A DNA stretch of 44,881 bases. Origin: Escherichia phage SM_A2. The DNA is taken from sequence record PP920552.1; one strand, 5' to 3'. The translations under genes and the position numbers were made by a program. Positions 27,255 through 44,881 of this stretch are shown in pieces. Numbering within the stretch: the stretch's first letter is position 1; each line of letters starts with the position of its first letter. The notes below the pieces were generated by a model. The model had not been told where the DNA came from. It ran no database searches and saw only the letters and a list, made by a program, of their open reading frames with translations.

Positions 27255-27288
27255 AATATAATGCAACCAATATGATTATGCAACCAAT
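27255..27288 (-). promoter_or_regulatory. sigma70-like promoter with tandem ATTGGTTGCA motifs (leftward)
   Basis: Minus-strand reading: ATTGGTTGCAT (-35 = TTGCAT, fwd 27278-27283), 17-nt spacer containing a second ATTGGTTGCA, TATATT (-10, fwd 27255-27260); a near-complementary hairpin plus T-run follows in the leader (fwd 27228-27250). Confidence 0.55.
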
Positions 27289-29740: not shown

Positions 29741-29744
29741 TTCT

Positions 29745-29963
29745 TTATTCCGCCTTTTTCCAGACTTCGGTTTCACTGTTCCAGTTCCTTTTTGTAGCGT
29801 CGTAGTTGGTGGCGTGTCCGATGTGCACACTGGTAGCCCGGAAGCTCTTGAATTTTTGCCAGCACACCGTCAACGGCAGCGGATCATTCATGCCCGCGAT
29901 AAACCATACGCGATCGCCCGGTTTACATTCGCCCAGCTTGGTGAGTCGGTAATGTTCTTTCAT
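29745..29963 (-). CDS. hypothetical small protein
   Basis: 72 aa from ATG 29963 with GGGAGA RBS; preceded (in transcription direction) by hairpin GGCGGG-ACAAG-CCCGCC. Confidence 0.4.
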   Translation of the reverse strand: MKEHYRLTKLGECKPGDRVWFIAGMNDPLPLTVCWQKFKSFRATSVHIGHATNYDATKRNWNSETEVWKKAE

Positions 29964-30006
29964 CGTCATGTCTCCCAAAAATGGCGGGACAAGCCCGCCG
30001 TATTAA

Positions 30007-30180
30007 TTATTTTTGTTCTGCACGGTAGCGGCGCTGCCGTTCGCGCTCTTTCTTATTGCGGCACGATTTGCACTCTGCCCGATACCCGTCTGGACTGCGC
30101 GCAGTCTTACCGGTGTATTTGTGGAACTGGGATAGCGGCTTGACACATCCGCAATTACTACAACGTTTTTCTTCAATCAT
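30007..30180 (-). CDS. small zinc-ribbon protein (putative)
   Basis: 57 aa from ATG 30180; CxxC...CxxC (CSNCGC ... CKSCRNKK) and basic C-terminus; the track ORF 30007-30315 is trimmed to avoid overlap with the VRR-NUC gene. Confidence 0.45.
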   Translation of the reverse strand: MIEEKRCSNCGCVKPLSQFHKYTGKTARSPDGYRAECKSCRNKKERERQRRYRAEQK

Positions 30181-30211
30181 CTCTAAAATCCTCGATATGG
30201 CTAACCGGCAC

Positions 30212-30250
30212 ACTATACCGCTATGCGACCAATTCAGCAACCAATAAATC
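30212..30250 (-). promoter_or_regulatory. sigma70-like promoter with tandem ATTGGT(T/C)GC motifs (leftward)
   Basis: Minus-strand reading: ATTGGTTGCTG (-35 = TTGCTG, fwd 30235-30240), 17-nt spacer containing ATTGGTCGCA, TATAGT (-10, fwd 30212-30217); lies inside the 3' end of the VRR-NUC gene. Confidence 0.45.
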
Positions 30251-30499
30251 GCAGTCGGATATGCTGTCGATAACGCGAACGTCAGCACCGCGGCGGGCCA
30301 TTCGCTCATGTTCACGTACCTGGTGCGGCTTAGGTTTTCCTCCGGGGCGCTTCACTTCGACGAACACTATTTTGCCGTTGATGATAATAATCAGGTCGGG
30401 CGCACCCGCGCGCCCCTCCCATGCAAGTTTTCGGCAGAATCCGCCGACCTCTTTCACCCGTTTCATCAGGTGACTTTGAATCTTGCCTTCTGGTGTCAT
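30221..30499 (-). CDS. VRR-NUC domain nuclease
   Basis: 92 aa; PD...(D/E)xK-type core APDLIIIINGKIVFVEVKRPG characteristic of VRR-NUC. Confidence 0.75.
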   Translation of the reverse strand: MTPEGKIQSHLMKRVKEVGGFCRKLAWEGRAGAPDLIIIINGKIVFVEVKRPGGKPKPHQVREHERMARRGADVRVIDSISDCDLLVAELVA

Positions 30500-32790
30500 T
30501 ACTTCCTGTACCTGTACATAATGTCGCCTTCGGCGGCAAGTGGGAAGCCTTTAGCCCAAATAGGCAGGTCGCACATCAGCGCGCAAAGCTCCTCGGTAGT
30601 GTAGTCGTCGGTGTCCGGCACTTCTGTGATCAATTCGTCGTGTACTGACAGGACGATTTCATACCCCGCAGCTTCAACGCCAGGCATGGACCATGCGAGA
30701 ATATCGCGACACAACGCCTGTACGATGTTCTCCGTCAGTTTGCCGCCGTAGGTATACTGGAATCCCCACTGGCGCGTCGTCTGATTCTCGCCCTGATATT
30801 TAATGCGTGTGCTGGTGCGCTTCTTGCCGGTGTCTTCGTCAATCTCGGTCGTGACCGACAGCGCGATGCCTGGGTAGCTCATGATGCGCCCGGACGGCAA
30901 CTCGATTTTCAACCACCACCCCGCGGCGTTCGGGTCGTCGCGCTCCTCGTCGAAGGTTGGGTCGTGCTTCGCCTTCGTGCGGACTATCTTGAGCGCTTTC
31001 TTACCATCCGGGCGAACGTTCGCGCCAGCCCAGTACGCTTTGCCAGGATTGCGGATTGCACACAACACCGCGTCCTCAAGCTCGGCCCAAAAGGCTACCG
31101 TCTTCGGGTGAGCCTCGCGCCACATGCGTTTAATCGCATCACACGTAAGCCATACGTTTTTCGGCAGTATGTAAGTCGGGCGCTCGTCCTTCTTGCCAGG
31201 CTTCGGCGGTCGCTTCGCTTCGTTAATGCGGGCGTACTCATAACCCCGTTTAGCCGCTGCCCAAATGTGATCGGGGAATGTGCCTTTCATGACGTCCGCC
31301 ATCGCGTAAAGGTCGAGGCCCAGGTTTTTAGCAAACTGCAGGAACGCGGCAACGCCGCCACCATAACCCAGTCCCAATTCGCACGCCTTACCAATCTGGC
31401 GTAAGTCTTTTCGGTTGGCTTTGATGTATTCCGGGTCGAGGCCAAACATCTTACCGGCAGTTTCACAATAGATATCGCGACCCGCCCTAAACACCATTAG
31501 CGCGGTTTTCTCACCAGCGATCCAGGCAAGCCCGCGACCTTCCACGTTAGAATAGTCAGCTACAACAAACTTCTTGCCCTTAGCCGGGATAATGCACCCG
31601 CGAACGGTCGAGGCCGTTAACTTCGATATGTCATACGCCCAGTGCGCTGTCCCGCGTAACAGGGAGTTGATGCCGTTGGTGAGCATGTGCGACCGGACCC
31701 AAAAAGAAACGTCGCTCTCGCCTTCACGGCGCTTAATCTTCCCTTCGTGGTCGTCGCTATACTCGCCGCGTGCCAGGTTTTGCGGCTGGAAGCCCTTACC
31801 GGCCCAGCGTAGCGTGCGTTTCGCCCCGCCATACTGGAGACACCCACGACGGCGACCATCTGCGGATAAGCCATTAACGAGCGGATTGTACTTAGTCGAT
31901 GCCGTTGATGACGCACCGAGGCGCATCTCGATAAGCACTTTGCCCTCGTCGGGGAAGTCCGGGTCTTCCAGCAGGTCGTTAAGCGTGGATTTCTGCGCGT
32001 TGTGGATTGTGAACGCAGGCGCGAGGTCGCGCAGCGCTGGCAGGAAGTCATTGCCTGTCAGCTTACCGCCGAAGCGCTCCCATGCTTCTTCCTTCAATTC
32101 TTCCTTATGCGCCTGCACCGCTTTGATCGCGGCGTTCGCCAGGTCAACGTCCACATAGAAGCCGCGGTCGTTGATCAACTGGTCAATAAGCAGGATTTCA
32201 TCTTCCTTCGGCGTGTTACCCCAGTCCGGTATGCGCCAATAGACTTCCCTCATCGCTATAATATCCAGTGCGGCATAGCGCAGGAATTTAGCCCACTCCT
32301 CGGGGTGCGTCTCGCGCGTGTAGCGGCGGATTTTGTAGGTCTTGGGGGTTGGCTTACAGAATCGTTTGATCAGCGCCTTGCCCGCCTTATCCTTCGCGTG
32401 CTCTGCGTCGACGCCCAACACCTGGCACTGCATATCGAGGCTACCCGGCAGCGCGTGGCGAAAGGCCATAATCATGGTATCCTCGATCTGGCCTACCGGC
32501 AGGTCAATGCCCCACTTCTCGCGAATAACCAGGCGGTCAAACAGGAGGCCGTTAGCCATCACTATTTTTGCTTTCTTGCGGGATACCTGGCGGAGCGCCT
32601 TGCGCAGTTCACGCGGCATTGTTGGGGACTCGGTGCAATCCCATGTCTGCACGCGGCCCTCGTCTATGGCGTACGTGCAAATCATAATCTCGGTTGTTGG
32701 GTGTTCTGCGTAGGCGTATGCGCCCACTTTCTTCAGGTCCACCCCGCTAAATGTCTCGGTATCGAGAAAAAGGCGTTCGAAGTCTTTCAT
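30499..32790 (-). CDS. DNA polymerase I-like (family A) with 3'-5' exonuclease domain
   Basis: 763 aa; N-terminal exo motif LFLDTETFSG (DxE); C-terminal polymerase motif C-like SVHDELITEV; basic finger-like segments. Confidence 0.9.
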   Translation of the reverse strand: MKDFERLFLDTETFSGVDLKKVGAYAYAEHPTTEIMICTYAIDEGRVQTWDCTESPTMPRELRKALRQVSRKKAKIVMANGLLFDRLVIREKWGIDLPVGQIEDTMIMAFRHALPGSLDMQCQVLGVDAEHAKDKAGKALIKRFCKPTPKTYKIRRYTRETHPEEWAKFLRYAALDIIAMREVYWRIPDWGNTPKEDEILLIDQLINDRGFYVDVDLANAAIKAVQAHKEELKEEAWERFGGKLTGNDFLPALRDLAPAFTIHNAQKSTLNDLLEDPDFPDEGKVLIEMRLGASSTASTKYNPLVNGLSADGRRRGCLQYGGAKRTLRWAGKGFQPQNLARGEYSDDHEGKIKRREGESDVSFWVRSHMLTNGINSLLRGTAHWAYDISKLTASTVRGCIIPAKGKKFVVADYSNVEGRGLAWIAGEKTALMVFRAGRDIYCETAGKMFGLDPEYIKANRKDLRQIGKACELGLGYGGGVAAFLQFAKNLGLDLYAMADVMKGTFPDHIWAAAKRGYEYARINEAKRPPKPGKKDERPTYILPKNVWLTCDAIKRMWREAHPKTVAFWAELEDAVLCAIRNPGKAYWAGANVRPDGKKALKIVRTKAKHDPTFDEERDDPNAAGWWLKIELPSGRIMSYPGIALSVTTEIDEDTGKKRTSTRIKYQGENQTTRQWGFQYTYGGKLTENIVQALCRDILAWSMPGVEAAGYEIVLSVHDELITEVPDTDDYTTEELCALMCDLPIWAKGFPLAAEGDIMYRYRK

Positions 32791-32957
32791 TGCTTAATCC
32801 TCACTACGGCGTCAGCGCTGCCGATCATGGAGAAGATGCCGTCAGACAGGGCAATCTCTTCGCCATTGTTGCGAATCTCGGCAACGGTGAAATACTCGCC
32901 CAGCAATTTGGACCATACCTGCATTCCGACTTTTACTTCGCTGGCTTTAATGCGCAT
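32787..32957 (-). CDS. small hypothetical protein (not in ORF track)
   Basis: 56-aa ORF (MRIKASEVKVGMQVWSKLLGEYFTVAEIRNNGEEIALSDGIFSMIGSADAVVRIKQ) whose TGA overlaps the polymerase ATG; weak RBS; sits between a terminator and the polymerase gene. Confidence 0.35.
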   Translation of the reverse strand: MRIKASEVKVGMQVWSKLLGEYFTVAEIRNNGEEIALSDGIFSMIGSADAVVRIKQ

Positions 32958-32970
32958 TTCTCATTGTCCT

Positions 32971-32997
32971 ATTAAAAAGCCCGCATTAAGCGGGCTT
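32971..32997 (-). terminator. intrinsic terminator (minus strand)
   Basis: AGCCCGC-ATTA-GCGGGCT hairpin followed on the minus strand by a T-run (TTTTAAT). Confidence 0.6.
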
Positions 32998-33015
32998 GAA
33001 TAGTGGGCCTTGCCC

Positions 33016-33816
33016 TTAACGGCGGCGACGTTTGCGTGGCGCTTCGTCTTCGTCGTCGTCCTCATCATCTTCGTCATCGCGTGGCTTACGACGTTTGCGA
33101 GGTGTTTCATCTTCGTCGTCGTCATCGCGGCGCTTGGACTTTTTGGACTTGCGCGGCTTGTCGTCTTCGTCATCGTCATCACGACGTTTTGACTTTTTGG
33201 ACTTACGCGGGCTTTCGTCTTCGTCGTCGTTATCCAGGTCTTCGTCGGAACATGAAGACCCGCCACCGCCGAAGGCTTCGCCGTCTTCACGGAATCGCAG
33301 ACCCAGCAAGCCCGCCCCGAGTCCCTTGCCGTTGGTATTGTTCCATGCCCAAATATCAAGGGACACGTTGCAATAACAACCGGGGTAGATCTCCTGGCCT
33401 TCGATCTCGTCGCCTTCTACGGTCAGACCTTGTTCAGTCTGCTTCTCGCCGAGTGACGTTTGGATGATAGGCTGTTTGAACGATTTGGCGTTGATATACA
33501 ACATGCCTTCGAATTCTTCGGTTACTTCGTCGCGCTCGTCACCGTCGCGGACTGCGCATTCCTTAGAATCCTGGGCGTAGTGGCGGTCCATCCACTTATC
33601 GGCATTCTTCTCGGATTTCAGCTTGTCGGTGAGCACTGCGCGCGCTGCCGCTTCCACTTTGTCCACCTGCGGATCTTCTTTATCAAGAAGAATCACGGCG
33701 CGGTATGCCGGTTTTTGTCCATCCTGTTTAGGGGTATCACGTTCCCAAATTTTCAGGAAACATACGCGCACATTTTTCAGGTTGACTTTAGCCATTTTCC
33801 AATTCCTCATTTTCAC
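33016..33816 (-). CDS. ssDNA-binding-like protein (DUF2815-type, putative) with charged repeat tail
   Basis: 266 aa; location next to the DUF2800-like nuclease and polymerase matches the conserved phage replication module; C-terminal about 70 aa alternate poly-acidic and poly-basic blocks from tandem DNA repeats (about 33040-33235). Confidence 0.5.
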   Translation of the reverse strand: MKMRNWKMAKVNLKNVRVCFLKIWERDTPKQDGQKPAYRAVILLDKEDPQVDKVEAAARAVLTDKLKSEKNADKWMDRHYAQDSKECAVRDGDERDEVTEEFEGMLYINAKSFKQPIIQTSLGEKQTEQGLTVEGDEIEGQEIYPGCYCNVSLDIWAWNNTNGKGLGAGLLGLRFREDGEAFGGGGSSCSDEDLDNDDEDESPRKSKKSKRRDDDDEDDKPRKSKKSKRRDDDDEDETPRKRRKPRDDEDDEDDDEDEAPRKRRRR

Positions 33817-33885
33817 ATGTATCGGGGTTATTGGAAGCCACCCCGTTCGGCTTGGTTGCTAATCTACTTGGTTGCGCCTACGCGG

Positions 33886-34128
33886 TCAAGCATTTTCATT
33901 AAAAAGATTTCTGGTCACGTAGTTGGTAGCGTTCTCGATCCAGCTTAGCGGCGGGCGTTCGATGTTCTTTTCCACCCAATCGACGGCAACTTCGCTATAT
34001 CCGTCATCCAGCCAGCGGGTCGGATGGCGAATCATCCACGCCACCATTAACACGCCTTGCACGCAATGCAGGATAAAGCCCAGCGCGCCGAGCAAAAACA
34101 TCAATAAGATTGCGAATACTTTATTCAT
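33886..34128 (-). CDS. small membrane protein (hypothetical)
   Basis: 80 aa; two hydrophobic helices (VFAILLMFLLGALGFIL, GVLMVAWMI). Confidence 0.45.
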   Translation of the reverse strand: MNKVFAILLMFLLGALGFILHCVQGVLMVAWMIRHPTRWLDDGYSEVAVDWVEKNIERPPLSWIENATNYVTRNLFNENA

Positions 34129-35551
34129 TGCTTAAGTCCTCGTCAGTAGCTTCCGACCACGCAGGGCGCGGGTCGTCGATTGGAGCTAACACCGGTTTGG
34201 CAGGTGCGCGCGTGATTTTATCACACAGCTTCGCCCACACTTTCGGTTTTTCGTCCTTCAGTACCTTCTCGGCATCCGTAGGGCTGAGCAATGTTTCTTT
34301 GTACATCACATCGCGCTTGATCCGGGCCTTCGTGAAGATTTCAATCACTTCGCTCTCGTCCGCCCACTTACGGATCCCTTCCTTACCGGCAACCATCTTG
34401 AGGCCCAGCGATTCGCCATCGCCCGCCATGACCGCCTTGAATACCGCGGACTCGATAGCCTTGATGTGCTGGCGCATTGCGTCCAGGCCTTCATAAGCCT
34501 TGCGCAGTTCCGCAGCGCTCATAGCACCGGGGGCCGCTTCTTTCTTGCCACGCTTCGCACGTCGGGCCGCCTTCCGGGCTTCGCGGGCCATATTGCGGTC
34601 GTGATTGGCGCATTCTTCCTCGGTCGCCACGCTCACGTCGTCGCCCAGGTCTTCGTCGGTTGCCGTTGGAGGTGTCATCGTGTCGATTGCGGCCTTAGCG
34701 CGGGCACTACACTGATCCGCAAATCGGCACCACTGGCACGCATCAACGCTGGGACGGAAGTCGGCACGGGTAAGTCCCTTCTTGCCTCGGGAATACGCCT
34801 CCAGTGCGGCAATAGCGCGCTTGGATGCAAACTTCGCGAATATCTCCAGCGCTTCTACCGAAATATCCCACTCCGACGCCCCGCCGCAATACGGCTGGAA
34901 GATAACCAGGCGCACGGTCGTAATGTCGTACATAGTTTGCAGCTTGCGCAGCAGGCCGAGCGCGTACAACATAAGCTGTTTGTTTTCTTTCGCCTCGACC
35001 TTATGCCTCCCGGTCTTCAGGTCGCCAACAATCAGCATGTACGTCCCATCGGTCTTTTTCATGACCATGACCATATCGGCAGTACCGAACGTTTTAATCC
35101 TGTTGCCGTCGATCTCGTAGCCTGAGTGAAGGACGCGGGTCAGATCGGCGCGCATCTCAAGCTGGACAAACTCCGCCACTTCGAGGAGCGGTCGCCAGTG
35201 GTCGATGTACGCGTCGCACTGTTTCACCATGTCGTCGTTGACCAGTACGCCGCCTTTCGGTGCTTTAGGGTGTGCCTTCACTGGCCCCTTGCCTTCGTTC
35301 TCGACGTAGCACCCTTTATACGTCTTCGCGGTTATCAGCTTCTCACCGGCGATAATGCGGTTTAGCACCACCTCAGATACGGTGTGCATACTCGTACCGT
35401 TAATCGCGGCTTGCCCGGATTCGTTCGGGATATCTTTTTCCACCACCAGGGCAGCAGGGCAACCCATCCACTTTTTAGCACCGGATGGCCCAAGTAATGA
35501 GTGTTCTGTATTGCTACCGGATTGCGTTTTACGTTTTGGTTTAATCGCCAT
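34121..35551 (-). CDS. DUF2800-type PD-(D/E)XK nuclease (Cas4-like, Fe-S cluster)
   Basis: 476 aa; N-terminal LLGPSGAKKWMGCPA; nuclease core (IVGDLKTGRHKVEAKENKQLMLYALGL); C-terminal Cys cluster CQWCRFADQC consistent with a 4Fe-4S site. Confidence 0.7.
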   Translation of the reverse strand: MAIKPKRKTQSGSNTEHSLLGPSGAKKWMGCPAALVVEKDIPNESGQAAINGTSMHTVSEVVLNRIIAGEKLITAKTYKGCYVENEGKGPVKAHPKAPKGGVLVNDDMVKQCDAYIDHWRPLLEVAEFVQLEMRADLTRVLHSGYEIDGNRIKTFGTADMVMVMKKTDGTYMLIVGDLKTGRHKVEAKENKQLMLYALGLLRKLQTMYDITTVRLVIFQPYCGGASEWDISVEALEIFAKFASKRAIAALEAYSRGKKGLTRADFRPSVDACQWCRFADQCSARAKAAIDTMTPPTATDEDLGDDVSVATEEECANHDRNMAREARKAARRAKRGKKEAAPGAMSAAELRKAYEGLDAMRQHIKAIESAVFKAVMAGDGESLGLKMVAGKEGIRKWADESEVIEIFTKARIKRDVMYKETLLSPTDAEKVLKDEKPKVWAKLCDKITRAPAKPVLAPIDDPRPAWSEATDEDLSNE

Positions 35552-35730
35552 TATTCCACCCGTGTAAACTGGACAATTACATATTTCACATTTGCCAGGC
35601 CCGCTTTTTCGACTCGGCGCTTAACTTCATTTTGCGCGTCCACAAAGCAATTGCTTGCGTTGGTGTTTTCAACAATAAAAGAAGTGTGGTCGTTTAATTC
35701 GTGGCATGTTGCCAGCACGAAGAATTTCAT
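35551..35730 (-). CDS. hypothetical small protein
   Basis: 59 aa from ATG 35730 with GGGAGA RBS; stop/start overlap with the upstream gene. Confidence 0.35.
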   Translation of the reverse strand: MKFFVLATCHELNDHTSFIVENTNASNCFVDAQNEVKRRVEKAGLANVKYVIVQFTRVE

Positions 35731-35981
35731 TATTTTGTCTCCCAGCGGTCGATCGTTCTTGCTTCGGACGCAACCGCAAAGCGAACATATTCCAGATTGG
35801 AGTCCGCCCAAATATAAAAGTCGGGGTTAGTAAAGGTGGTGCGCTTAATTTGCGCGGGTGTGTTACGGCGTTTATCTATTACGGCAACGCGGGATTGAAA
35901 GCTGCCGATGCGTTCGAATAGCCAATAGTACGGGCGCTGGTCGCGGGAATCCACCGCCTCGATTAGCGTGAAGCGTGCCAT
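35730..35981 (-). CDS. hypothetical protein
   Basis: 83 aa; ATG 35981 preceded by GAGGA RBS and a terminator hairpin. Confidence 0.45.
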   Translation of the reverse strand: MARFTLIEAVDSRDQRPYYWLFERIGSFQSRVAVIDKRRNTPAQIKRTTFTNPDFYIWADSNLEYVRFAVASEARTIDRWETK

Positions 35982-35991
35982 TGTCTCGTCC

Positions 35992-36021
35992 TCTAAAAAT
36001 AGGCCCGCAGATTAGCGGGCC
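35992..36021 (-). terminator. intrinsic terminator (minus strand)
   Basis: GGCCCGC-AGATTA-GCGGGCC hairpin followed on the minus strand by TATTTTTAG. Confidence 0.6.
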
Positions 36022-36029
36022 GGATAATA

Positions 36030-36641
36030 TTAATCTTCCAGTTCGAAATAAGTTTCGACGATTTCTTTAAGATCTTTGTGGAAGTCTTCGACGTCGTCAT
36101 CTTCCAGCTTGGCGATTGATTTGATCTCGAACGATTCCAGCAGGTCGTCGAATTCGTCGTTGGCATCGTCGTCGTCACCACCAGCGATAATAGCGGCGTA
36201 TTGTTTGATCTCATCGCGCATCTCCGCCAGCGGATCGGCATCTTTCTTGCCTTTGCCTTTCGCCGGGGCTTTTTTAGATTTAGCCGGTTTTTCGTCTTCG
36301 GCGTCATCGTCGTCATCTTCTTCTACGACTTCTTTTTTGGCCTTACCTTTCGCCGGGGCTTTTTTAGATTTAGCCGGTTTTTCGTCTTCGGCGTCATCGT
36401 CGTCATCTTCTTCTACGACTTCTTTTTTCGCCTTACCTTTCGCCGGGGCTTTTTTAGATTTAGCCGGTTTTTCGTCTTCGGCGTCATCGTCGTCATCTTC
36501 TTCTACGACTTCTTTTTTCGCCTTAGACGGCTTCTTGTCTTCCTGCTTACCAACGGCAGCGCCAACGGTTTCATAATGCTTAGCGATGGTTTCCAGTGCT
36601 ACTACGCCGCGAGTAATCAGGTTTACGATTTGTTCAAACAT
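36030..36641 (-). CDS. charged-repeat protein, first gene of leftward operon
   Basis: 203 aa; three tandem 38-aa repeats (KKEVVEEDDDDDAEDEKPAKSKKAPAKGKAKK) from 114-bp DNA repeats (about 36245-36530); strongly acidic C-terminus; GGAGAT RBS. Confidence 0.6.
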   Translation of the reverse strand: MFEQIVNLITRGVVALETIAKHYETVGAAVGKQEDKKPSKAKKEVVEEDDDDDAEDEKPAKSKKAPAKGKAKKEVVEEDDDDDAEDEKPAKSKKAPAKGKAKKEVVEEDDDDDAEDEKPAKSKKAPAKGKGKKDADPLAEMRDEIKQYAAIIAGGDDDDANDEFDDLLESFEIKSIAKLEDDDVEDFHKDLKEIVETYFELED

Positions 36642-36846
36642 GTTTTATATCTCCGATTGGTTAAGTTTAGGTGTCGGCAGTTAACTTCGTCGGTGGCCTT
36701 AACATATTGCCAGGTTGCGCGTTCTCCCGTTCGGGTAGTGGACCGGGTTATATATTCACGGTTGGGAATCCTGACACTTCGATCCGGCCCCTGCGTTGCC
36801 CCTCTCCAGTTTGCGTCCTGCATCCTGTCGACGGGGTGAATAATAG

Positions 36847-36879
36847 ATTGGTTGCAGGATGGGTGTCAACAACTAATTT
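36847..36879 (+). promoter_or_regulatory. sigma70-like promoter with ATTGGTTGCA motif (rightward)
   Basis: ATTGGTTGCAG (-35 = TTGCAG 36852-36857), 16-nt spacer, TAATTT (-10, 36874-36879). Confidence 0.4.
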
Positions 36880-36985
36880 CAAAAAAAAAGCGCCGAGGCA
36901 AAATGCGACGGCGCTAACCAATAAGAGACAATGAGACGGGAATTATTATTACACGCGTGCGCGCCCGTTTCAATATCCAAAGGAT

Positions 36986-37014
36986 TTGACACCTTGCGGT
37001 TTTAGGTGTAGTTT
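36986..37014 (+). promoter_or_regulatory. sigma70-like promoter (rightward)
   Basis: TTGACA (36986-36991), 17-nt spacer, TAGTTT (37009-37014); about 30 nt upstream of ATG 37046. Confidence 0.5.
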
Positions 37015-37045
37015 CATTGGTCATTAACCAACTGGGGACATAACA

Positions 37046-37375
37046 ATGAATGTAAACGACGCAATCGAAATGTTAACGAAGACTGTTAGCAGTGAAACAA
37101 GCCGGTCATGGGCTTATACCGATGCCGTTGGGGCGGTGCTGTTTGAGGTCGAGCGCCTGCGCAGTGTAGAAAAAGAATTACGCGCCAGGCTGGAATTGCT
37201 CAACGGTACTGCAGCAAGCAAGCTGCAAAAGCACAATGAAGAAATGGAAGAATACAAAAAACAGGTTATCCGTTTGCGCGCCGAGGGCAAATCCTGGGCG
37301 ATGATTGCCGAGTTGACCGGAATTAATCGGAGCACAGTGCGCTCCTGGGTACGCAATAATAAAACTTCTAAGTAA
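37046..37375 (+). CDS. HTH DNA-binding regulator (putative)
   Basis: 109 aa; coiled-coil N-terminal half; C-terminal HTH resembling sigma-70 region 4/LuxR type (GKSWAMIAELTGINRSTVRSWVRNN); first gene of the rightward operon. Confidence 0.55.
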   Translation: MNVNDAIEMLTKTVSSETSRSWAYTDAVGAVLFEVERLRSVEKELRARLELLNGTAASKLQKHNEEMEEYKKQVIRLRAEGKSWAMIAELTGINRSTVRSWVRNNKTSK

Positions 37376-37385
37376 GGCCACGGCA

Positions 37386-39650
37386 ATGAGCTTAATTAAA
37401 TTCGCTGTAACAAGACCCGCTAAAAAAGGCGAAAAAGCCAGGGCGGAAAACTTCCAGATGACCACCGATGAATTTTTCGAATTTATCAATGATGCGAAAG
37501 AAATCTCCTCGGTGCATATCAACAAGACGGAAGATAAAGCCGAGTATGCGCGCCGCAAGCGTAAGGCCGACGGCATCGTGGCGTATACCAGTGACGGATT
37601 GCGTCGTAAGACCAGTGCGGTGGACCGCTCGATCCTGTTCTTCGATATTGACCGCACCGACACCCGCACCCTACGCCGCTGCCGTAAGGCGTTCATTGAC
37701 GCGGGTCTGGAGCACGTCTTCCACACCACAACCGGCGACCGTCACCCACTGAAAGGCGGCACGCGTTGCGCTCGATTCCTGGTGCTCACTGACAAGCCTG
37801 TACCGGCTGAAGACCTGGGCCGCGTCCAGTATGCACTATTACACCAACTGGGTCTGTCAGATGTGGACTTCGACGATTGCACGAAAGACACAAACCGCCT
37901 GATGTACCTGCCACACCAGCAGTCTGTTATTAAGTGCCACTATGGCAAGCGCGCCCGCGTCCGTCGTCTGCTCCTCCTGGCTGACAAGCTGGGAGTTGAG
38001 AAAGAGGAAGTCCGTCGCGAACTGACCCAGGGCGACGACGCAGTGGCAGACGGCATTCTGGACTGGTGCTTCCAGGCAGGATTCGAGGAGTTATCTTCAG
38101 GGCGGGGCTATGAAGTGCCGTGCCCGAACGAACATCTGCACAGCGGCGAAGGGTCGACGGCTATCATGGTTAAGGATGGCGAGATCCGTTTCAAGTGTAT
38201 GCACACCGGCAACGAGTGTTGCTCGGAGCTGAACAGACACCAGCACCTGGCGCTACGTCTTATCGGGATCCCGGACCACCTGAACGTCGAGCCACACAAT
38301 ATGTCCCGTAAGCAAATCGCCGCCATCCTTCCGGGGCTGGACGTCGAGGAAGTCGAATCCTTATATGAACATATTGTTGATGCGGTTGGCGACGGCGAAG
38401 AATACGGCGTGTGCACCGATGCGGATCTGGATAACGAGCCGGTTGCGCTGTTCAGTAAGCACGACCCGATTATCGAGGGGTTGATTAACTTTAAATCGAC
38501 CTGGTATATGGCGGGTGAGTCGAATATCGGTAAGTCTTTCTACGTGCTGGGCCAGATGGGCGCGGTTGCCGCCGGTATTCCGTTTGGCGGTGCGAAGGTC
38601 GTACAGTCTCATTGCTTCTATTTCGACGCGGAAGGTGGCGAAGCCTCCAACCAGCGTAAAGAAGCATTGCAGATTAAATACGAGCACGACCTGGACAAGC
38701 TGCACATTATAGACCTGCAGTCACGCGGCTGGGATATCACCAGCAAATCGGGCTTGCGCGAAGTTATCAGCTTTATCAACCGCACCGCTAACGGCGAACC
38801 GGTTGGCCTGGTGGCGTTCGACTCACTCAACCAGACTGTTGCGTTGCGGTCCGCCGAGGCTAAACCGTTCGACGAGAACAACGCCAGCGATATGGGCGAA
38901 GTGGTCAAAGCGCTGAAGGCCATCGCGGAAAATACAGGTGGCAGTGCGGGCGTCATCCACCACCCGGCTAAAGGTGCAAACGGCAGCAGAACGCCACGCG
39001 GGTCCGGCGCGCTGCATGGTGCTGTCGATTCTGCGTTCTTCCTGGAACAGCCGGACGACAACCAGCCCGGACAATTGAACCTGTATCATGAGAAGTCACG
39101 TAACGGCATCAAGCAAGCGCCGCGCGGCTTCGTCCTGCTTAAGTGCAAGGTGAAGGTGGATCTCCGCAAGTCAGAAGCGTTCGAGGCGCACCAGTCCACC
39201 AGCACCGGTCCAGACTTCGGCGACGTGGTTGCCGGATGGGACGTCAAGCCGATCGCCTCCACGCCACGCGACGAGACTCTCTACCTCGTACCGGTTGCCC
39301 TGGCACCTTTCGCTATTGAACAGGCGAAGGCAGCAGGCAAGGCCGCGGTTAAGGAAGAGAACACCGCCGGGCCGCGCAACGAAAAAGAGAAAGTGCTTTA
39401 TGCGGCACTGGAAAAACTGATGGAAGATAACCCGGACCATACTGGATTCAGTAAATCGGCAATTGTCCGCCAGGCGGGACTCGCGAAAGGCGGCACTTCG
39501 ACGAAGGCAATCGACGATATGGTGGAGCGCGGAGTGATAGGTTTCTATACCGATCCGCACACCGGGGCCATCTATGGGTCGTCTAATTTGGTCATAAAAA
39601 CGGATATACCAATCACGCTTTCGGCGACCGACGAAGACTTGAAAGATTAA
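37386..39650 (+). CDS. DNA primase / helicase (primase-polymerase N-domain + P-loop NTPase)
   Basis: 754 aa; N-terminal acidic motif ILFFDIDRTD; Cys/His cluster (CPNEHLH...CMHTGNECC); Walker A GESNIGKS and Walker B-like LVAFDS. Confidence 0.8.
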   Translation: MSLIKFAVTRPAKKGEKARAENFQMTTDEFFEFINDAKEISSVHINKTEDKAEYARRKRKADGIVAYTSDGLRRKTSAVDRSILFFDIDRTDTRTLRRCRKAFIDAGLEHVFHTTTGDRHPLKGGTRCARFLVLTDKPVPAEDLGRVQYALLHQLGLSDVDFDDCTKDTNRLMYLPHQQSVIKCHYGKRARVRRLLLLADKLGVEKEEVRRELTQGDDAVADGILDWCFQAGFEELSSGRGYEVPCPNEHLHSGEGSTAIMVKDGEIRFKCMHTGNECCSELNRHQHLALRLIGIPDHLNVEPHNMSRKQIAAILPGLDVEEVESLYEHIVDAVGDGEEYGVCTDADLDNEPVALFSKHDPIIEGLINFKSTWYMAGESNIGKSFYVLGQMGAVAAGIPFGGAKVVQSHCFYFDAEGGEASNQRKEALQIKYEHDLDKLHIIDLQSRGWDITSKSGLREVISFINRTANGEPVGLVAFDSLNQTVALRSAEAKPFDENNASDMGEVVKALKAIAENTGGSAGVIHHPAKGANGSRTPRGSGALHGAVDSAFFLEQPDDNQPGQLNLYHEKSRNGIKQAPRGFVLLKCKVKVDLRKSEAFEAHQSTSTGPDFGDVVAGWDVKPIASTPRDETLYLVPVALAPFAIEQAKAAGKAAVKEENTAGPRNEKEKVLYAALEKLMEDNPDHTGFSKSAIVRQAGLAKGGTSTKAIDDMVERGVIGFYTDPHTGAIYGSSNLVIKTDIPITLSATDEDLKD

Positions 39651-39741
39651 ATTTTGCGCGCATTGGTTGCCATTTTGCGTGCTTTTAGGTGGTCGCATTG
39701 GTTGCCGCGTAGTGTAAATATGATGAATAGTTATGCAATAA

Positions 39742-39914
39742 AACTGCATAAAACAAACGGGACAAAAAGCGGGACAAACAGGGGGCGGGACAAAGCGGGA
39801 CAGCACCCCTGTCCCGCCCCGGATGACGCGGCCTGGCGAGGAGCGGGACAGCGGGACAGCACCCCAGTCTTTCAGACTAGACGGGGGGTCTGGCACCCCC
39901 CTCGTCTGAGACTG
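39742..39914. repeat. non-coding iteron/hairpin element, copy 2
   Basis: Paralogue of 12361-12520: about 6 GCGGGACA copies, A(C/T)TGCATAA copies and the conserved long hairpin (39865-39914); lies in the 480-bp gap after the primase-helicase gene. Confidence 0.8.
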
Positions 39915-40068
39915 CATAAAATCCGGGATTGCATAATACACGGCAACAAGATGCAAATTGCGGTCGTCGATGAACTAGGCAACCAATGCGAGCTGCAGAA
40001 TGGCGGGTGAAAAATGCAGTTTGCAGTTACAGCAGATAGCGATCAACTTTTTCATGCGCGTGATTAAT

Positions 40069-40102
40069 ATTGGTTGCATTCACCCTGGCACCCTGCTATT
40101 TT
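40069..40102 (+). promoter_or_regulatory. sigma70-like promoter with two ATTGGTTGCA-type motifs (rightward)
   Basis: ATTGGTTGCAT (-35 = TTGCAT 40074-40079), 17-nt spacer, TATTTT (40097-40102); a second motif TTTGGTTGCAC overlaps the -10/+1 region; about 20 nt upstream of the AAGAGGA RBS of gene 40131. Confidence 0.55.
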
Positions 40103-40130
40103 GGTTGCACACCAACAAGAGGACTGAACG

Positions 40131-40436
40131 ATGAGAGCTTTAATCTGGAATTACACAATAGCGGTGGCGAAGCTGTATGAAGCGAAGCACACAGACGGCA
40201 ACGCAGACGACGCGCGCCAGGTTGTCATCCTGGCCCAGCAGGGAATCATGAACGCGTTCGACGATATGTTTGCCAGCCTGGACGAACTGGAACCGCTGCG
40301 CGTGGCAATCTGCGAATATGCGATGGCTTTTGCCCGCGAGCGCCTGGCGTATCGCTTCGGGATCGGTGAGACGGCAGTGACAAACGTCGCCCGGATTAAA
40401 GCCCAGCGCGAACTATTCGCCCAGCTTGCGAAATAA
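40131..40436 (+). CDS. hypothetical protein
   Basis: 101 aa; AAGAGGA RBS; no motif recognised. Confidence 0.5.
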   Translation: MRALIWNYTIAVAKLYEAKHTDGNADDARQVVILAQQGIMNAFDDMFASLDELEPLRVAICEYAMAFARERLAYRFGIGETAVTNVARIKAQRELFAQLAK

Positions 40437-40445
40437 GGGGCCAAA

Positions 40446-40715
40446 ATGGACCGCAGACGCGCAAAACGCCTTTCATGGCGTATTCCACTGCATTGCATAC
40501 GAATATGGGCTAAGAATGCGAATGAGGGCGATTCTGTGTTCTGGTGCTACAGCGATGATGTGAAGCCATTAACGCAGACCCGCTACTTGCGCCAGTTCGC
40601 CAGGGAGCATGGGTTAGCCATAAAAACGTCCTTGCAACCAATTGGCATTCGTATTACATTACGCCGGAAGCCCGCCGTTGAGCGGGTAGGCAAACACTGG
40701 AGACTGAGCAAATGA
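40446..40715 (+). CDS. hypothetical protein
   Basis: 89 aa; AAGGGG RBS; basic; ends in the duplicated junction GGAGACTGAGCAAATGA. Confidence 0.5.
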   Translation: MDRRRAKRLSWRIPLHCIRIWAKNANEGDSVFWCYSDDVKPLTQTRYLRQFAREHGLAIKTSLQPIGIRITLRRKPAVERVGKHWRLSK

Positions 40716-40864
40716 TCCGAGTCAAGAGCAAGGCCACCGGATTGATTTATCTCGTGGTGTGGGAAGGGAACGGAAGCGTTACGCTCATGCACCCAAAAAC
40801 CAAATCCCGCCACACTATCAGCCAATTTACCCTGAACAATAACTATCGGAGACTGAGCAAATGA
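40712..40864 (+). CDS. hypothetical small protein
   Basis: 50 aa; ATGA-coupled at both ends; both junctions carry the same 17-mer GGAGACTGAGCAAATGA. Confidence 0.35.
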   Translation: MIRVKSKATGLIYLVVWEGNGSVTLMHPKTKSRHTISQFTLNNNYRRLSK

Positions 40865-41013
40865 CACCAATGCAAAGAGCGCTAATGGCTGGATTCTCGC
40901 AGAAGTTTATTTCAGTAGACGCCTGCATAGCTGATTATGAGATGGACGGCATCGCTACGGTATGCGATGGCGACTATAAGACTGTTGACGAGATTGAGGA
41001 GACAGAACAATGA
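40861..41013 (+). CDS. hypothetical small protein
   Basis: 50 aa; ATGA-coupled start and stop; acidic. Confidence 0.35.
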   Translation: MTPMQRALMAGFSQKFISVDACIADYEMDGIATVCDGDYKTVDEIEETEQ

Positions 41014-41567
41014 AATTACTATTCCGCCGTAAGCACGATGGTCGTATTCTGAAGCCGATCCAGACCCTGGATTCCTACGTCCGCCTACAAAACGCGGCAG
41101 GCAATCGGGTGTGGCGGGCACCGAAACACACGCTGCCGCAGTTCTTCGACGTACTCACGCACGATATTGAGCGCGGCGATGTGCTGCGTGATATCCGCGA
41201 CGGTAGTATGTGGATCGTTGAATATGTCGGTCTTCATGGCCTGCGTATGCAATCCCGCAAGGATGGCGTAGCAGGTATGACTTACTTCGGGCTGGTCAAC
41301 TACGAGCGAGTGGGCCGAAAATACTGCCTTCGTGACCGCCAGCCGCATGAGCGCGTTGAGTTCCGCAAGACACAACACGCCTACGCAACCTACGACTCCC
41401 ACCAGGCGCAATCGAAGATGGAGCGTACCGCGCACGAAATCATAAATCGCTTTGATGCCGTGACGAATGCTCAGCGCCATGCGCAGGAATATGGCGTTGG
41501 ATTCATCCGGGTGGAACAAGACGGCAGCATGAAGGCCATCGACCCGCGCTCGGTGATTCTGAAATGA
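41010..41567 (+). CDS. hypothetical protein
   Basis: 185 aa; ATGA-coupled; no motif recognised. Confidence 0.55.
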   Translation: MKLLFRRKHDGRILKPIQTLDSYVRLQNAAGNRVWRAPKHTLPQFFDVLTHDIERGDVLRDIRDGSMWIVEYVGLHGLRMQSRKDGVAGMTYFGLVNYERVGRKYCLRDRQPHERVEFRKTQHAYATYDSHQAQSKMERTAHEIINRFDAVTNAQRHAQEYGVGFIRVEQDGSMKAIDPRSVILK

Positions 41568-41710
41568 GTGCGACGATCCGGGATATGCTGATGCATAACC
41601 GCTTTGAGATAGGCGGTCGGGTATTTCGCAATTACTTCGTGGCGCGTGCCTGGGCGCGTCATATTGGCAAACCGGAAGGGGCAATTCGATGCTATACGTC
41701 TTCGCGGTAG
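41564..41710 (+). CDS. hypothetical small protein
   Basis: 48 aa; ATGA-coupled start; not in ORF track (below size cut-off). Confidence 0.3.
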   Translation: MSATIRDMLMHNRFEIGGRVFRNYFVARAWARHIGKPEGAIRCYTSSR

Positions 41711-41786
41711 TATGTGGCGGTAGTCTGGCGGCCCTGGTGCTGTTGGCGTCGGTTATTAGTCTGGTTAAATACCTATGGGGCAGATT

Positions 41787-42074
41787 ATGATTCATGATGT
41801 GATTTATTGGTTTGGTTTGATCTGCGGGCTGTGCCTGCTTACCGCGGTGCTGTTGGGCGTCCTGATGTTTGTAGTATGGCCCGCCGTGGAAGCCGCCAGC
41901 ATTACCCGCATGACGTTCCAGATATACAAGCGCCGTGGAATCACGGAGCACCCGACCCGGTTGCGCATGTGGTGGCTGTGGTATCGGGATATGGTTGGGG
42001 GCCGGATGTTCGAGGCAGTCCGATCGGAAGGATGGGAATGGAGAGGCGTCGGCAAGTGGTCCATTTTCGATTAA
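41787..42074 (+). CDS. hypothetical membrane protein
   Basis: 95 aa from ATG 41787; N-terminal TM helix (VIYWFGLICGLCLLTAVLLGVLMFVVW); Trp/Arg-rich C-terminus; a 33-codon TM-peptide ORF (41689-41790) overlaps upstream. Confidence 0.4.
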   Translation: MIHDVIYWFGLICGLCLLTAVLLGVLMFVVWPAVEAASITRMTFQIYKRRGITEHPTRLRMWWLWYRDMVGGRMFEAVRSEGWEWRGVGKWSIFD

Positions 42075-42091
42075 TTATGCAAGCGTGATAT

Positions 42092-42126
42092 AGTCCCAGT
42101 GAGCTAAAACTTACTGGGACTTTTTT
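42092..42126 (+). terminator. intrinsic terminator directly abutting the holin start codon
   Basis: AGTCCCAGT-(12-nt loop)-ACTGGGACT hairpin followed by T6, ending 1 nt before ATG 42127. Confidence 0.6.
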
Positions 42127-42417
42127 ATGGATAAGCTAAACGAGTGGTTATTCGCCCTTGCGTGTCTTGCTGGTGGCTTCGTAGGCGCACGCATTCATGG
42201 CGAGGCAACGAAAGGGCCGTTGAACTTCGTTTTGTATGTGGTAGTTGGCTTCCTGTGTGCCATATTTGGCGCACCGGCTATTGCCGAGTGGGCTGGTTTG
42301 TCTGGTGAGCGCACTGTTGCCGGTTTGGGCTTCGTAACTGCCATCTTCTGGATGCCAATAGCTGACCGGATCCGGGAGACTATTGCGTCGTTCCGACTTC
42401 CGGGGGGTGCAAAATGA
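42127..42417 (+). CDS. holin (putative)
   Basis: 96 aa with three predicted TM helices; immediately upstream of a second membrane protein and the endolysin. Confidence 0.6.
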   Translation: MDKLNEWLFALACLAGGFVGARIHGEATKGPLNFVLYVVVGFLCAIFGAPAIAEWAGLSGERTVAGLGFVTAIFWMPIADRIRETIASFRLPGGAK

Positions 42418-42659
42418 TTATCTCCGTCCTGTTGTTTGTTATCATAGGGGCTTCGTCCCTGTTTAACGTGTATGCGCCGTCCGTTCAGGATGGCTTCTTC
42501 GGTCGGGTGTTATATCTGCTAACAGCAATGACCTGTATTGTCGGGCTGTTGCAAACAGGAGACGTATCAGATACCACCTGGACCGCGTTAATCTGGCTGT
42601 TTGCATTGCGCACCCTGCGTAATGCTGTTTTGAATGGGGTAAAACATGCGATTCAGTGA
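42414..42659 (+). CDS. second holin / antiholin-like membrane protein
   Basis: 81 aa, 2-3 hydrophobic helices; ATGA-coupled to the holin; overlaps the endolysin start. Confidence 0.5.
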   Translation: MIISVLLFVIIGASSLFNVYAPSVQDGFFGRVLYLLTAMTCIVGLLQTGDVSDTTWTALIWLFALRTLRNAVLNGVKHAIQ

Positions 42660-43137
42660 TAACGGTCTACGATTTACGGCAGCCTGGGAGACTTTCAGCC
42701 CGGTGCCGTACTTCGCGACCAAGAAAGAGCAGGCCCGCGGCCTGTACACCTGGGGTTATGGGCACACCGGCACTAATCCGCCTCGAAGCATTACCCGTGC
42801 TGAAGCTCTGGAACTACTCAAGCGAGATGTGGCGTATGCCGAGGACTGGGTGAACAAATACGCACATCCGAGCATTAACCAGGCGCAATTCGACGCGCTG
42901 GTGGACCTGGTAATCAATGCCGGTCCTGGTCCGATCGTGCCGGACAACATTGCCAACGACTTTGACGATGCGGTGCGACTGGGAGACTGGGCGAAGGTCC
43001 GTGCTACTCTGCCGCAGTTCCGCAAGCAAGGCGGGTCGGTGCTCTTAGGTCTGGTGCGCCGTGCAATCGGCAGACAGGCGTTGTTTGATGGTAAGCAGTG
43101 GGACGTTGCCGAGAAAATCGGGCGAAACGCCGCATAA
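42646..43137 (+). CDS. endolysin (phage lysozyme-type)
   Basis: 163 aa; N-terminal catalytic-region pattern (WETF ... GLYTWGYGHTG) typical of T4/P21-type lysozymes; no signal sequence seen. Confidence 0.85.
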   Translation: MRFSDNGLRFTAAWETFSPVPYFATKKEQARGLYTWGYGHTGTNPPRSITRAEALELLKRDVAYAEDWVNKYAHPSINQAQFDALVDLVINAGPGPIVPDNIANDFDDAVRLGDWAKVRATLPQFRKQGGSVLLGLVRRAIGRQALFDGKQWDVAEKIGRNAA

Positions 43138-43152
43138 TACGAGGAACACAGT

Positions 43153-43320
43153 ATGTTAAAAAGCATTCTTGATCATAACGCCGACGCACTTGCTGCACTG
43201 GCTAAAACAGAAGATCCGGGCGCGCGAGCTATCATCGCGGATACTATCAACCACGCTGGGGTCTTCGATGCGAAGCTGCCAAGCCCACCCCCACCGGAAG
43301 ACCCAGTCCCCGCCGCGTAA
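43153..43320 (+). CDS. hypothetical small protein
   Basis: 55 aa ORF after the endolysin, Pro-rich C-terminus; below the ORF-track size cut-off. Confidence 0.3.
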   Translation: MLKSILDHNADALAALAKTEDPGARAIIADTINHAGVFDAKLPSPPPPEDPVPAA

Positions 43321-43327
43321 ACTATCA

Positions 43328-43351
43328 AGCCCGGTTAATTCCGGGCTTTTT
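43328..43351 (+). terminator. intrinsic terminator after lysis cassette
   Basis: AGCCCGG-TTAATT-CCGGGCT hairpin followed by T4-5. Confidence 0.75.
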
Positions 43352-43412
43352 ATTGCTTGACTCGGGACCGTGGTATATTGTCCTCTGACCAATAACCAGG
43401 AAGTTAATTAAT

Positions 43413-44555
43413 ATGCACCCGCAAACTAAAATCACCGACGAGCAATTGATCGCCGAGTTGCAATCCGGCACTACCTCGAAAGATATTGCGAAGAAATACG
43501 GGATTGCCCTACGCAATGTCTATATGCGGAAAGCCCGCCTATCGAAGAAAGGGATTGGACACGGCAACGATGCCGTAATCCGCAAGCGCGTTGCCGATGG
43601 CTTTGGGGTTAAGCGCGTATCGGCCCTGGTGCGCGGCAATGGCGAAGAGGTCATGTCGTGGGTTATTACGGAGCAGGACAAGGAGCGCCAACTCGAAGCT
43701 ATGCGCGCTGTTGTCGCGGGTATGAACAGCGAAATCACACCGGCAGCGCCAGTAAACGCCCCTCCAGTACCGATCCAGGCGCTCGACTTGCTCAACCTGT
43801 ACACCGTGTCAGACTTCCACTTGGGCATGTTGGCATGGGGCGAGGAGACTGGCGAAGACTGGGATATGGCGATCGCCGAAGACCTGTTCTACCGCTGGTT
43901 TGTAGAAGCCTTCGCACGCGCACCAGACGCAGGCACTGCCGTAATTAATATCCTCGGGGATATGGCCCACTTTGATAGCCTCGATGCTGTCACTCCGGCA
44001 AGTGGTCACGTACTGGACGCCGACACCCGCTACCAGAAACTGGTCCGATACATGATTCGCATGGTGCGCAACGTCGTCGAACTGGCGCTGCAAAAACACC
44101 ACAAAGTCAAACTGCTAATCGTCCAGGGAAATCATGACGAGTCGGGTATGATTTGGCTGGCTGAGATGTTCAATACTCTGTACGAGAACGAGCCGCGCGT
44201 CGATGTAGATACGTCACCGGACGTATACAAGATGGTGCAGCACGGTAAGACCACGCTGTTTTTCCACCACGGGCACAAAGCGCGATTCGATGCTATCGAG
44301 CCGGTTATGATTTCTAAATTCAGACAGGCTTTCGGGTCCAGTGAGTATAGCTACGCGCACGTAGGCCACTTGCACCACCAGAAGATTGTAGAATCCCGCA
44401 ACATGATTGTTGAACAGCACCGGACGCTCGCAGCGAAAGACGCCTACGCCAGTCGTGGCGGTTGGATGTCAGGTCGTAGTGCCAACGTCATTACCTACAG
44501 CGCCAACTACGGCGAAGTTGCACGCTTAACCATTAGCCCGGAAATGTTGAAATGA
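43413..44555 (+). CDS. calcineurin-like metallophosphoesterase with N-terminal HTH-like domain
   Basis: 380 aa; phosphoesterase motifs VSDFHLG (D-x-H), ILGDMAHFD (GD-x-x-D), QGNHDE (GNH[DE]) plus later His pairs; N-terminal 40 aa HTH-like. Confidence 0.7.
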   Translation: MHPQTKITDEQLIAELQSGTTSKDIAKKYGIALRNVYMRKARLSKKGIGHGNDAVIRKRVADGFGVKRVSALVRGNGEEVMSWVITEQDKERQLEAMRAVVAGMNSEITPAAPVNAPPVPIQALDLLNLYTVSDFHLGMLAWGEETGEDWDMAIAEDLFYRWFVEAFARAPDAGTAVINILGDMAHFDSLDAVTPASGHVLDADTRYQKLVRYMIRMVRNVVELALQKHHKVKLLIVQGNHDESGMIWLAEMFNTLYENEPRVDVDTSPDVYKMVQHGKTTLFFHHGHKARFDAIEPVMISKFRQAFGSSEYSYAHVGHLHHQKIVESRNMIVEQHRTLAAKDAYASRGGWMSGRSANVITYSANYGEVARLTISPEMLK

Positions 44556-44764
44556 TTAGACAAATATTCATGAGCACGCAGGCCGATCGCCTGAAAGAAC
44601 TACGCAAACAACTCGAAGGCTTGCGCCGATTCGAACGAACGGCAGCGGCGGTAGGCATGTCTATCAGCGAACGGATCGAGATACTATCGCAAATACGCTA
44701 CACAGAAGGCGCGATAAGAGAAGTACAAAGCATGTTAACCCGATACTACGGGCGTGACGTTTAA
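44552..44764 (+). CDS. hypothetical protein
   Basis: 70 aa; ATGA-coupled to the phosphoesterase; coiled-coil-like; followed by a T-rich putative terminator (about 44768-44797). Confidence 0.45.
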   Translation: MIRQIFMSTQADRLKELRKQLEGLRRFERTAAAVGMSISERIEILSQIRYTEGAIREVQSMLTRYYGRDV

Positions 44765-44881
44765 CCCTCCCAGCCTGCCGATTTGGTGGGCTTTTTTGTG
44801 CCTGTTATAATCCCAATTAGATGGCAGGGCCGTCTCCTATGTTGCCGATGGTCGGCGCATATGCACAAAAGGGCTTATATC

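Follow-up and report, generated by a model that had tools for sequence, protein, structure and literature searches.

In phage lambda, expression through the pR'-tR'-S arrangement relies on antitermination by Q, and an sdi structure lies upstream of S. In phage T4, the lysozyme gene e, as well as soc, 49 and I-TevI, has a hairpin that sequesters the ribosome-binding site and carries a late promoter inside it (PMC3014915, reviewing McPheeters et al. 1986). In virulent phages, ONT-cappable-seq has mapped intrinsic terminators both in 5' untranslated regions and within operons (PMC10914365). Here, we describe a locus that resembles each of these in part: a strongly conserved terminator hairpin that runs directly into the start codon of a holin gene, with a candidate extended -10 promoter overlapping its 5' arm.

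The hairpin upstream of the holin gene

The window, that is, the whole 44,881-nucleotide stretch of Escherichia phage SM_A2 (PP920552.1) analyzed here, is a nearly complete Dhillonvirus genome (HK578/SSL-2009a-like E. coli siphophage), and whole genomes such as that of Oekolampad are collinear with it. Dhillonviruses are common phages of therapy and of the BASEL collection. According to gene order, terS to the tail fibers occupy 1-24341 (+ strand) and the replication genes 24368-36823 (- strand). A divergent promoter region (36840-37045) precedes a rightward unit on the + strand, which comprises an HTH protein, the helicase-primase, an iteron-rich gap and eight small ORFs and ends at 42074. 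The lysis cassette (42127-43320, +), with two holin-like genes, an endolysin and a small ORF, lies between the hairpin and the next terminator; then come the phosphoesterase gene and a small ORF, another terminator and, on the circular map, terS.

The last gene of the rightward early/middle operon (41787-42074, +) encodes a small membrane protein (phrog_2531, PHROG 1.3e-36); it may have an alternative start at 41775, and the record of phage Sponge lists it as a CDS of 288 nt. The first gene of the cassette (42127-42417, +) encodes a 96-aa holin-like protein, the label “holin” being based only on PHROG (phrog_2359), GenBank naming and three hydrophobic segments. A second holin-like gene (42414-42659, +; 81 aa, phrog_2508) overlaps the first through ATGA and is followed by the endolysin gene (42646-43137, +; Phage_lysozyme, PF00959) and by a small conserved ORF at the end of the cassette (43153-43320, +; phrog_11068). 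The spanin genes annotated in relatives map to 4548-4989 of the window by homology to Oekolampad, in the head-morphogenesis region; they are about 7 kb from the holin-endolysin cassette across the circular map and end at a bidirectional terminator (4978-4998).

Other elements of the rightward region were recorded as well. For the first gene of the early operon (37046-37375, +), relatives give the annotation Gam-like nuclease inhibitor; its product has a C-terminal HTH_23/Sigma70_r4_2 domain (E = 3.7e-8, above the Pfam threshold) and is therefore a candidate transcription regulator. A 480-nt noncoding gap (39650-40130) contains many iteron-like GCGGGACA repeats, together with recurring TTGGTTGC and TGCATAA motifs and a G+C-rich inverted repeat, and is probably a replication origin and/or an operator region. 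At about 40094-40097, ahead of the small-ORF operon, there is a promoter-like sequence (TTGCAT, 17 nt, TG-C-TATTTT; the TGCTATTTT site). The 380-aa metallophosphoesterase has a weak HTH match (GerE, E = 0.0086) at its N terminus (43413-43560, +), fused to the phosphoesterase domain.

Positions 42092-42130 read AGTCCCAGTGAG-CTAAAA-CTTACTGGGACT, then TTTTT, then ATG. This sequence forms a terminator hairpin (42092-42121, +) with its 5' arm at 42092-42103, a 6-nt loop at 42104-42109 and its 3' arm at 42110-42121. In the stem, 9 perfect pairs, one G·U and two more add up to 12, of which 6 are G-C. The T6 tract (42121-42126, +; T5-T7 in relatives), whose first T is paired, is both the U-tract of the terminator and the U-rich spacer before the AUG, and A42127 of the start codon adjoins it without a gap. 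The hairpin by itself folds at -19.3 kcal/mol, and the in-context fold of the region reaches -29.8 kcal/mol (z = -3.55 versus shuffles). As terminator-quality criteria, we required a stem of at least 10 bp with no more than one G·U, a loop of 3-8 nt and no fewer than 5 T among the 6 nt that follow, and we used 100 dinucleotide shuffles as a control. Two loci in the genome pass, 42092-42121 and 42603-42625, against a shuffle mean of 0.02 per genome. The upstream gene is co-oriented, and its stop codon (42072-42074, +) lies 17 nt before the stem; therefore, terminating ribosomes should not melt the hairpin. The element is already labeled “terminator” in the GenBank records of CS16, PTXU06 and WFI. 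An Rfam 15 scan of the whole window gave no match at the gathering threshold and no known antitermination RNA. The sole subthreshold match, to NsiR1 at 42076-42128 (29.3 bits against a threshold of 39), was set aside as generic resemblance to a terminator.

The 2.4 kb around the hairpin match 153 phage records at 80-95% identity, nearly all of them Escherichia phages of the genus Dhillonvirus, whereas in 151 of 156 Dhillonvirus records the 76-nt junction within that stretch reaches at least 95% identity. By the criterion of conservation the element is functional, since the junction is conserved beyond its neighborhood. The stem shows no change in about 150 genomes. Across about 30 distinct Dhillonvirus sequences, the stem and the adjoining TGATATAGT never vary; variation is found only in the loop, at spacer positions 42075 and 42078 just after the upstream stop, and in the length of the T-run. 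CGTGATATAGT, the T-run and an ATG directly after it are also present in LM40P1, Ioannina and two metagenomic relatives. In the LM40P1-like sequences, the 5' arm has gained a C and the 3' arm has an A-to-G change, which together shift the register of the stem and keep its pairing (-24 kcal/mol in context); the spacer (AAG to AGT) and the loop have also changed. Separately, phage NHEP3 (330-365) carries the apical 12 nt of the hairpin in inverted form, GAGCTAAAACTT versus AAGTTTTATCTC in the window, which suggests a template-switch inversion within the inverted repeat.

The initial annotation had described a hairpin and T6 running directly into ATG 42127, and on this point sequence, stability, shuffle statistics and conservation all agree. 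The element at 42092-42126 is very likely a working terminator, with termination in vivo predicted from its sequence. The accompanying suggestion of a timing control on lysis is plausible: this strongly conserved, bona fide-looking terminator, which abuts the holin start, plausibly governs both the timing and the amount of lysis protein. If the terminator alone is real, it would be an ordinary module-boundary terminator, annotated before in some GenBank records.

The start codon and a candidate promoter

The holin gene almost certainly starts at ATG 42127. From the in-frame stop at 42100-42102 to codon 32, it is the only in-frame start-type codon. Among relatives, 18 of codons 1-31 are variable; since the substitutions are purely synonymous (13 codons) or conservative replacements (5 codons), this stretch is translated. 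The N terminus aligns from residue 1 with the holins of Kagunavirus (46% identity), which begin TTG-GAT-AAA downstream of a perfect Shine-Dalgarno (SD) sequence. The LM40P1-like ORF (71% identity) has four extra residues and still begins at an ATG abutting the T-run. A dual-start holin/antiholin motif of the lambda S107/S105 type was not found at the N terminus, where there is a single start and the protein begins MDK. Further into the gene, codon 32 is an in-frame TTG (42220, +; GTG in LM40P1) with AAGGG 4 nt upstream, and a shorter product with two transmembrane domains may begin there, as an antiholin or holin partner.

That the gene has no SD sequence, as first noted, holds for a canonical SD but not for a weak one: GGGA (42116-42119, +), 7 nt upstream of the AUG, lies within the 3' arm. 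Pairing of GGGA with the 16S 3' end is predicted at -3.9 kcal/mol, rank 28 of the 34 gene starts tested, and several neighboring genes use G-runs as SD sequences. When the read-through RNA is folded in a 171-nt context, GGGA has a probability of about 0 of being unpaired, and most of the pairing probability of the AUG also goes to the paired state. Folding thus places the ribosome site in a helix in upstream transcripts, as in a T4 gene e-type element. An RNA starting at 42100-42102 folds without the hairpin; GGGA is then unpaired with a probability of 0.25-0.7, and openness exceeds 90% both for the T-run and for the A of the AUG.

Pattern matching and a PWM both pointed to an extended -10 promoter-like sequence, TG-A-TATAGT (TGATATAGT), at 42086-42094 (+). 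The last 3 nt of its hexamer (42089-42094) are the first 3 nt of the hairpin's 5' arm. No good -35 is recognizable for this site, and for this reason it was absent from the standard -35/-10 scan and ranks only 37 by total score under the sigma-70 PWM; by extended -10 score, it ranks 7 genome-wide. The PWM was self-built from the consensus frequencies of Harley and Reynolds. Applying the usual 7±1 nt from -10 to +1, we predict a start site at about 42100-42102, within the 5' arm. The motif is invariant in all Dhillonvirus sequences examined, including the relatives with 71% identical holins, although three of its nine bases are already constrained by the stem. Another possibility is an outer helix in which the conserved upstream CGTGA pairs weakly with UUAUG in the start region.

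Compared with the T4 gene e type, in which a promoter lies in the 5' strand of the hairpin, TGATATAGT overlaps the 5' arm and has analogous counterparts in three lineages; its lack of a -35 and moderate PWM rank count against it. Literature searches found neither Dhillonvirus transcriptome, TSS, Term-seq or RNA-seq data nor published promoter-in-terminator cases. We regard the activity of the nested promoter at 42086-42094 as evenly balanced between yes and no, both the activity and the position of the start being predictions.

Two independent lineages have the same layout. KW1E-like phages have a holin with 34% identity and an unrelated intergenic region with no nucleotide similarity; their layout is TTGACC, 17 nt, TACTAT, directly followed by a TCCCCG...CGGGGA hairpin, T8 and ATG. 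In Kagunavirus (33 distinct sequences from 73 loci), there is a 9- to 13-bp hairpin whose 5' arm (ATCCTCCAG) is overlapped by TG-n-TATCCT and whose 3' arm is a perfect SD, GGAGGA (CTGGAGGAT), 6 nt before a TTG start, with no T-run. There, the “n,” the spacer and the loop vary; the TG, the hexamer and the stem are constant, and rare stem changes keep pairing. The Kagunavirus block is kept downstream of two different upstream genes. Scans of IMG/VR and metagenomes for intermediate relatives brought up no new lineage, all sequences being of the Dhillon, LM40P1, Kaguna, KW1E or MED16 type. The more distant holin homologs, in Pantoea MED16, Pseudomonas Amjad_SA and Pectobacterium Wc4, are preceded by other layouts, which speak neither for nor against the model.

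Elsewhere in the genome, -10-like motifs also accompany terminators. TGNTATANT has 5 matches, of which 3 are on the + strand, intergenic and beside the terminators at 42092, 43327 and 44772; these three terminators frame the lysis and phosphoesterase units. The terminator that closes the lysis cassette (43327-43353, +; AAGCCCGG-TTAATT-CCGGGCTT plus a T-run) is labeled “terminator” in the CS16 record. Downstream of it, an extended -10 promoter-like TGGTATATT (43371-43379, +; pattern match and PWM) lies 34 nt before the phosphoesterase ATG at 43413, the same geometry as that of the 42086 site, which is 33 nt from its ATG. In the region between, relatives have an insertion of 240-325 nt (Oekolampad 43237-43562, Sponge 8322-8560), and the window has the short form at 43362-43366; in the insertion-bearing relatives, the TGGTATATT site stays beside the phosphoesterase gene. 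Upstream of terS, a terminator (44772-44798) and the best late-promoter candidate occur together at 44772-44811 (+). The latter consists of TTGGTG (44783-44788), 17 nt and TG-T-TATAAT (TGTTATAAT, 44803-44811) and ranks 4 genome-wide by PWM. At this site, the hairpin of LM40P1 differs in sequence and is followed by a displaced TGATATAAT, which fits a real promoter and a real terminator.

The layout found at the holin gene has a second instance at 15229-15268 (+), with TGATAAAAT, a hairpin at 15238-15261, a T-run and the ATG of a minor tail gene at 15266, and a third at 11480-11530 (+), with TGTTAATAT, a hairpin at 11489-11505, T6, an SD (GGAG) and an ATG at 11528. Both hairpins, which belong to the tail operon, keep their pairing in LM40P1 through compensatory changes. 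Overall, TGNTANNNT is found at the 5' edge of the hairpin in 3 of 6 + strand terminators (42092, 11489 and 15238), a count that none of 20,000 local-composition shuffles reached; no -10-like element is present at the 5' edge of the + strand terminators at 4978, 43327 and 44772.

The other locus that passes the terminator-quality criteria (42603-42625, +) belongs to the 3'-terminal part of the second holin gene, and 20 nt separate it from the endolysin ATG. It is a 10-bp hairpin, GCATTGCGCA-CNC-TGCGTAATGC, with a TGTTTTG tail. In relatives it shows three independent pairing-preserving substitutions (G·T to G-C, A-T to G·T and G·T to A-T), and the middle base of its loop varies freely. It may be an attenuator or a translational element for the endolysin.

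A possible mechanism and its rivals

We propose that early sigma-70 transcription would start from consensus promoters near 37000 (TTGACA, 17 nt, TAGTTT) and at about 40094-40097, and that the rightward early/middle operon (helicase-primase and small ORFs) would end at the hairpin, at the border of the lysis cassette. The cassette (42127-43320), with a terminator on either side, would be transcribed from its own host sigma-70 extended -10 promoter, TGATATAGT. The local RNA, with +1 at about 42100-42102 and a leader of about 26 nt, would lack the 5' arm; it could therefore not form the terminator, and its weak SD, U-rich spacer and AUG would be open. U-rich spacers reportedly favor S1-dependent initiation, as described by Boni and Komarova. 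Upstream RNA would mostly terminate; in the read-through copies, a -19 kcal/mol stem would hold the ribosome site closed, and these copies would be translationally silent. Such a double lock, both transcriptional and translational, would uncouple holin synthesis from strong early transcription.

The initial annotation had concluded that holin expression needs terminator read-through, antitermination or leaderless-type initiation. The first two would not be obligatory, since an mRNA initiated locally, at the candidate promoter overlapping the 5' arm, would lack the terminator. A limit of the model is that a constitutive sigma-70 promoter by itself does not explain late timing. Taken as a whole, the explanation by a terminator and a nested promoter, which joins an observed, nonrandom and conserved structure at an observed start codon to predicted termination, promoter activity and start site, could go either way with equal probability.

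More tentatively, and with some doubt on our part, Dhillonviruses and, independently, Kagunavirus and KW1E-like phages may share a recurrent “self-insulating transcription unit,” in which the 5' flank of a terminator harbors a host sigma-70 extended -10 promoter. The hairpin would terminate and translationally silence incoming transcripts and would be absent from those initiated locally. Besides the lysis cassette, two or more further module borders (11480-11511 and 15229-15265) would have such units. If true, this would explain how the holin is insulated from very strong early transcription in a small virulent phage without its own polymerase, sigma factor or antiterminator, and it would provide a compact 55-nt part for phage engineering that combines terminator, promoter and RBS lock. 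For annotators, a terminator that touches a start codon need not imply a wrong start or obligatory read-through.

The main rival to the nested promoter is a leaky terminator, or attenuator, acting alone. There would be no local promoter, and the lysis genes would be expressed from the read-through fraction of the early operon; inefficient initiation on the U-rich tract, through S1 or standby binding, would lead to slow holin accumulation and thereby set the lysis time. The 42092 terminator is indeed real and conserved in sequence, and no strong promoter lies between the hairpin and ATG 42127. Moreover, hairpin, T-run and ATG also abut at 15238-15266 in the tail operon, where the downstream genes must be expressed, and phage terminators with partial read-through are documented in 5' untranslated regions and within operons (PMC10914365). 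However, the SD-like bases are fully paired in the read-through RNA. Nor does this scenario account for why TGATAT, beyond the stem, stays constant in diverged relatives, why KW1E-like phages have a canonical -35/-10 directly against the hairpin, why the Kagunavirus hairpin, which is not a terminator, locks a perfect SD, or why -10-like motifs are in excess at the 5' edges of terminators. We consider it unlikely, while still a serious candidate.

Regulated antitermination, in which a phage factor (Q-, N- or put-like, or novel) would modify RNA polymerase late so that the terminators are read through, is improbable. It would suit the several strong terminators that punctuate the late + strand, and the early protein encoded at 37046-37375, with its HTH/sigma-70 region-4-like domain, could be a regulator. 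Yet a Pfam scan of 27 phage ORFs (including all small ORFs within 37046-44764 and the uncharacterized leftward early ORFs) found no Q, N or other antiterminator domain, in line with the earlier remark that no Q-like antiterminator is recognizable, and no Rfam family reaches threshold anywhere in the genome. Antitermination, moreover, would not free a sequestered ribosome site. Quite improbable, too, is a hairpin that serves mainly as a translational operator or mRNA-stability element, with termination incidental, or a -10-like motif that is a sigma-dependent pause site. The Kagunavirus relatives keep the hairpin and not the T-run, and the weak outer helix can also pair the AUG, which speaks for such a role; against it, the stem in Dhillonvirus and KW1E-like phages is without exception followed by a run of T5-T8, and the sequence of the 42092 hairpin bears every hallmark of a strong terminator.

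Finally, a misassigned start or a leaderless mRNA beginning at the A of the ATG, both raised at the outset, is barely credible and was rejected: the TTG at codon 32 with its AAGGG would offer an alternative start, but the in-frame stop at 42100, the clear protein-level selection on codons 1-31 and the alignment of the N terminus across genera contradict it, and leaderless initiation is without support because no -10-like hexamer lies about 7 nt upstream of ATG 42127, where the sequence is GGGACTTTTTT.

Comparison with known systems

As in lambda, an intrinsic terminator would lie between a promoter and the holin gene, and RNA structure at the holin start would influence initiation. The locus differs from lambda in that no Q-like protein was found and the N terminus has no dual-start motif. 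The position of the start also differs: the lambda terminator is downstream of the start of a constitutive late promoter, whereas the only promoter-like element here is predicted to start transcription inside the hairpin and not upstream of it. The terminators mapped in virulent phages (PMC10914365) are likewise near gene starts and partition transcription units with graded read-through. Those terminators are downstream of mapped start sites; in the window, the bypass is predicted to come from starting inside the hairpin.

The Kagunavirus (K1G/RP180-like) arrangement shares with the window a homologous holin (46%), a -10 over the 5' arm, an SD in the 3' arm and the same distance to the start codon. 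It differs in its perfect SD, GGAGGA, its TTG start and the absence of a T-run; because of the latter, the Kagunavirus hairpin is not a terminator.

The likeness to T4 gene e is that a lysis gene is reached by early read-through transcripts with the ribosome site locked in a hairpin, which for the holin gene is a prediction from folding. In contrast to T4, a U-tract follows the Dhillonvirus hairpin, and thus the hairpin should also terminate. The T4 promoter is a gp55 late promoter (TATAAATA), and the one in the window is a candidate host sigma-70 extended -10; the T4 gene encodes lysozyme, and the gene considered here is a holin gene with a weak SD. If our explanation is true, the T4 gene e principle would extend to a terminator-coupled form that uses only host polymerase, with a dosage of the lysis gene independent of early transcription. 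By analogy, then, the nested-promoter double lock would be a host-polymerase-only variant of the T4 gene e principle and, as such, of a well-known kind.
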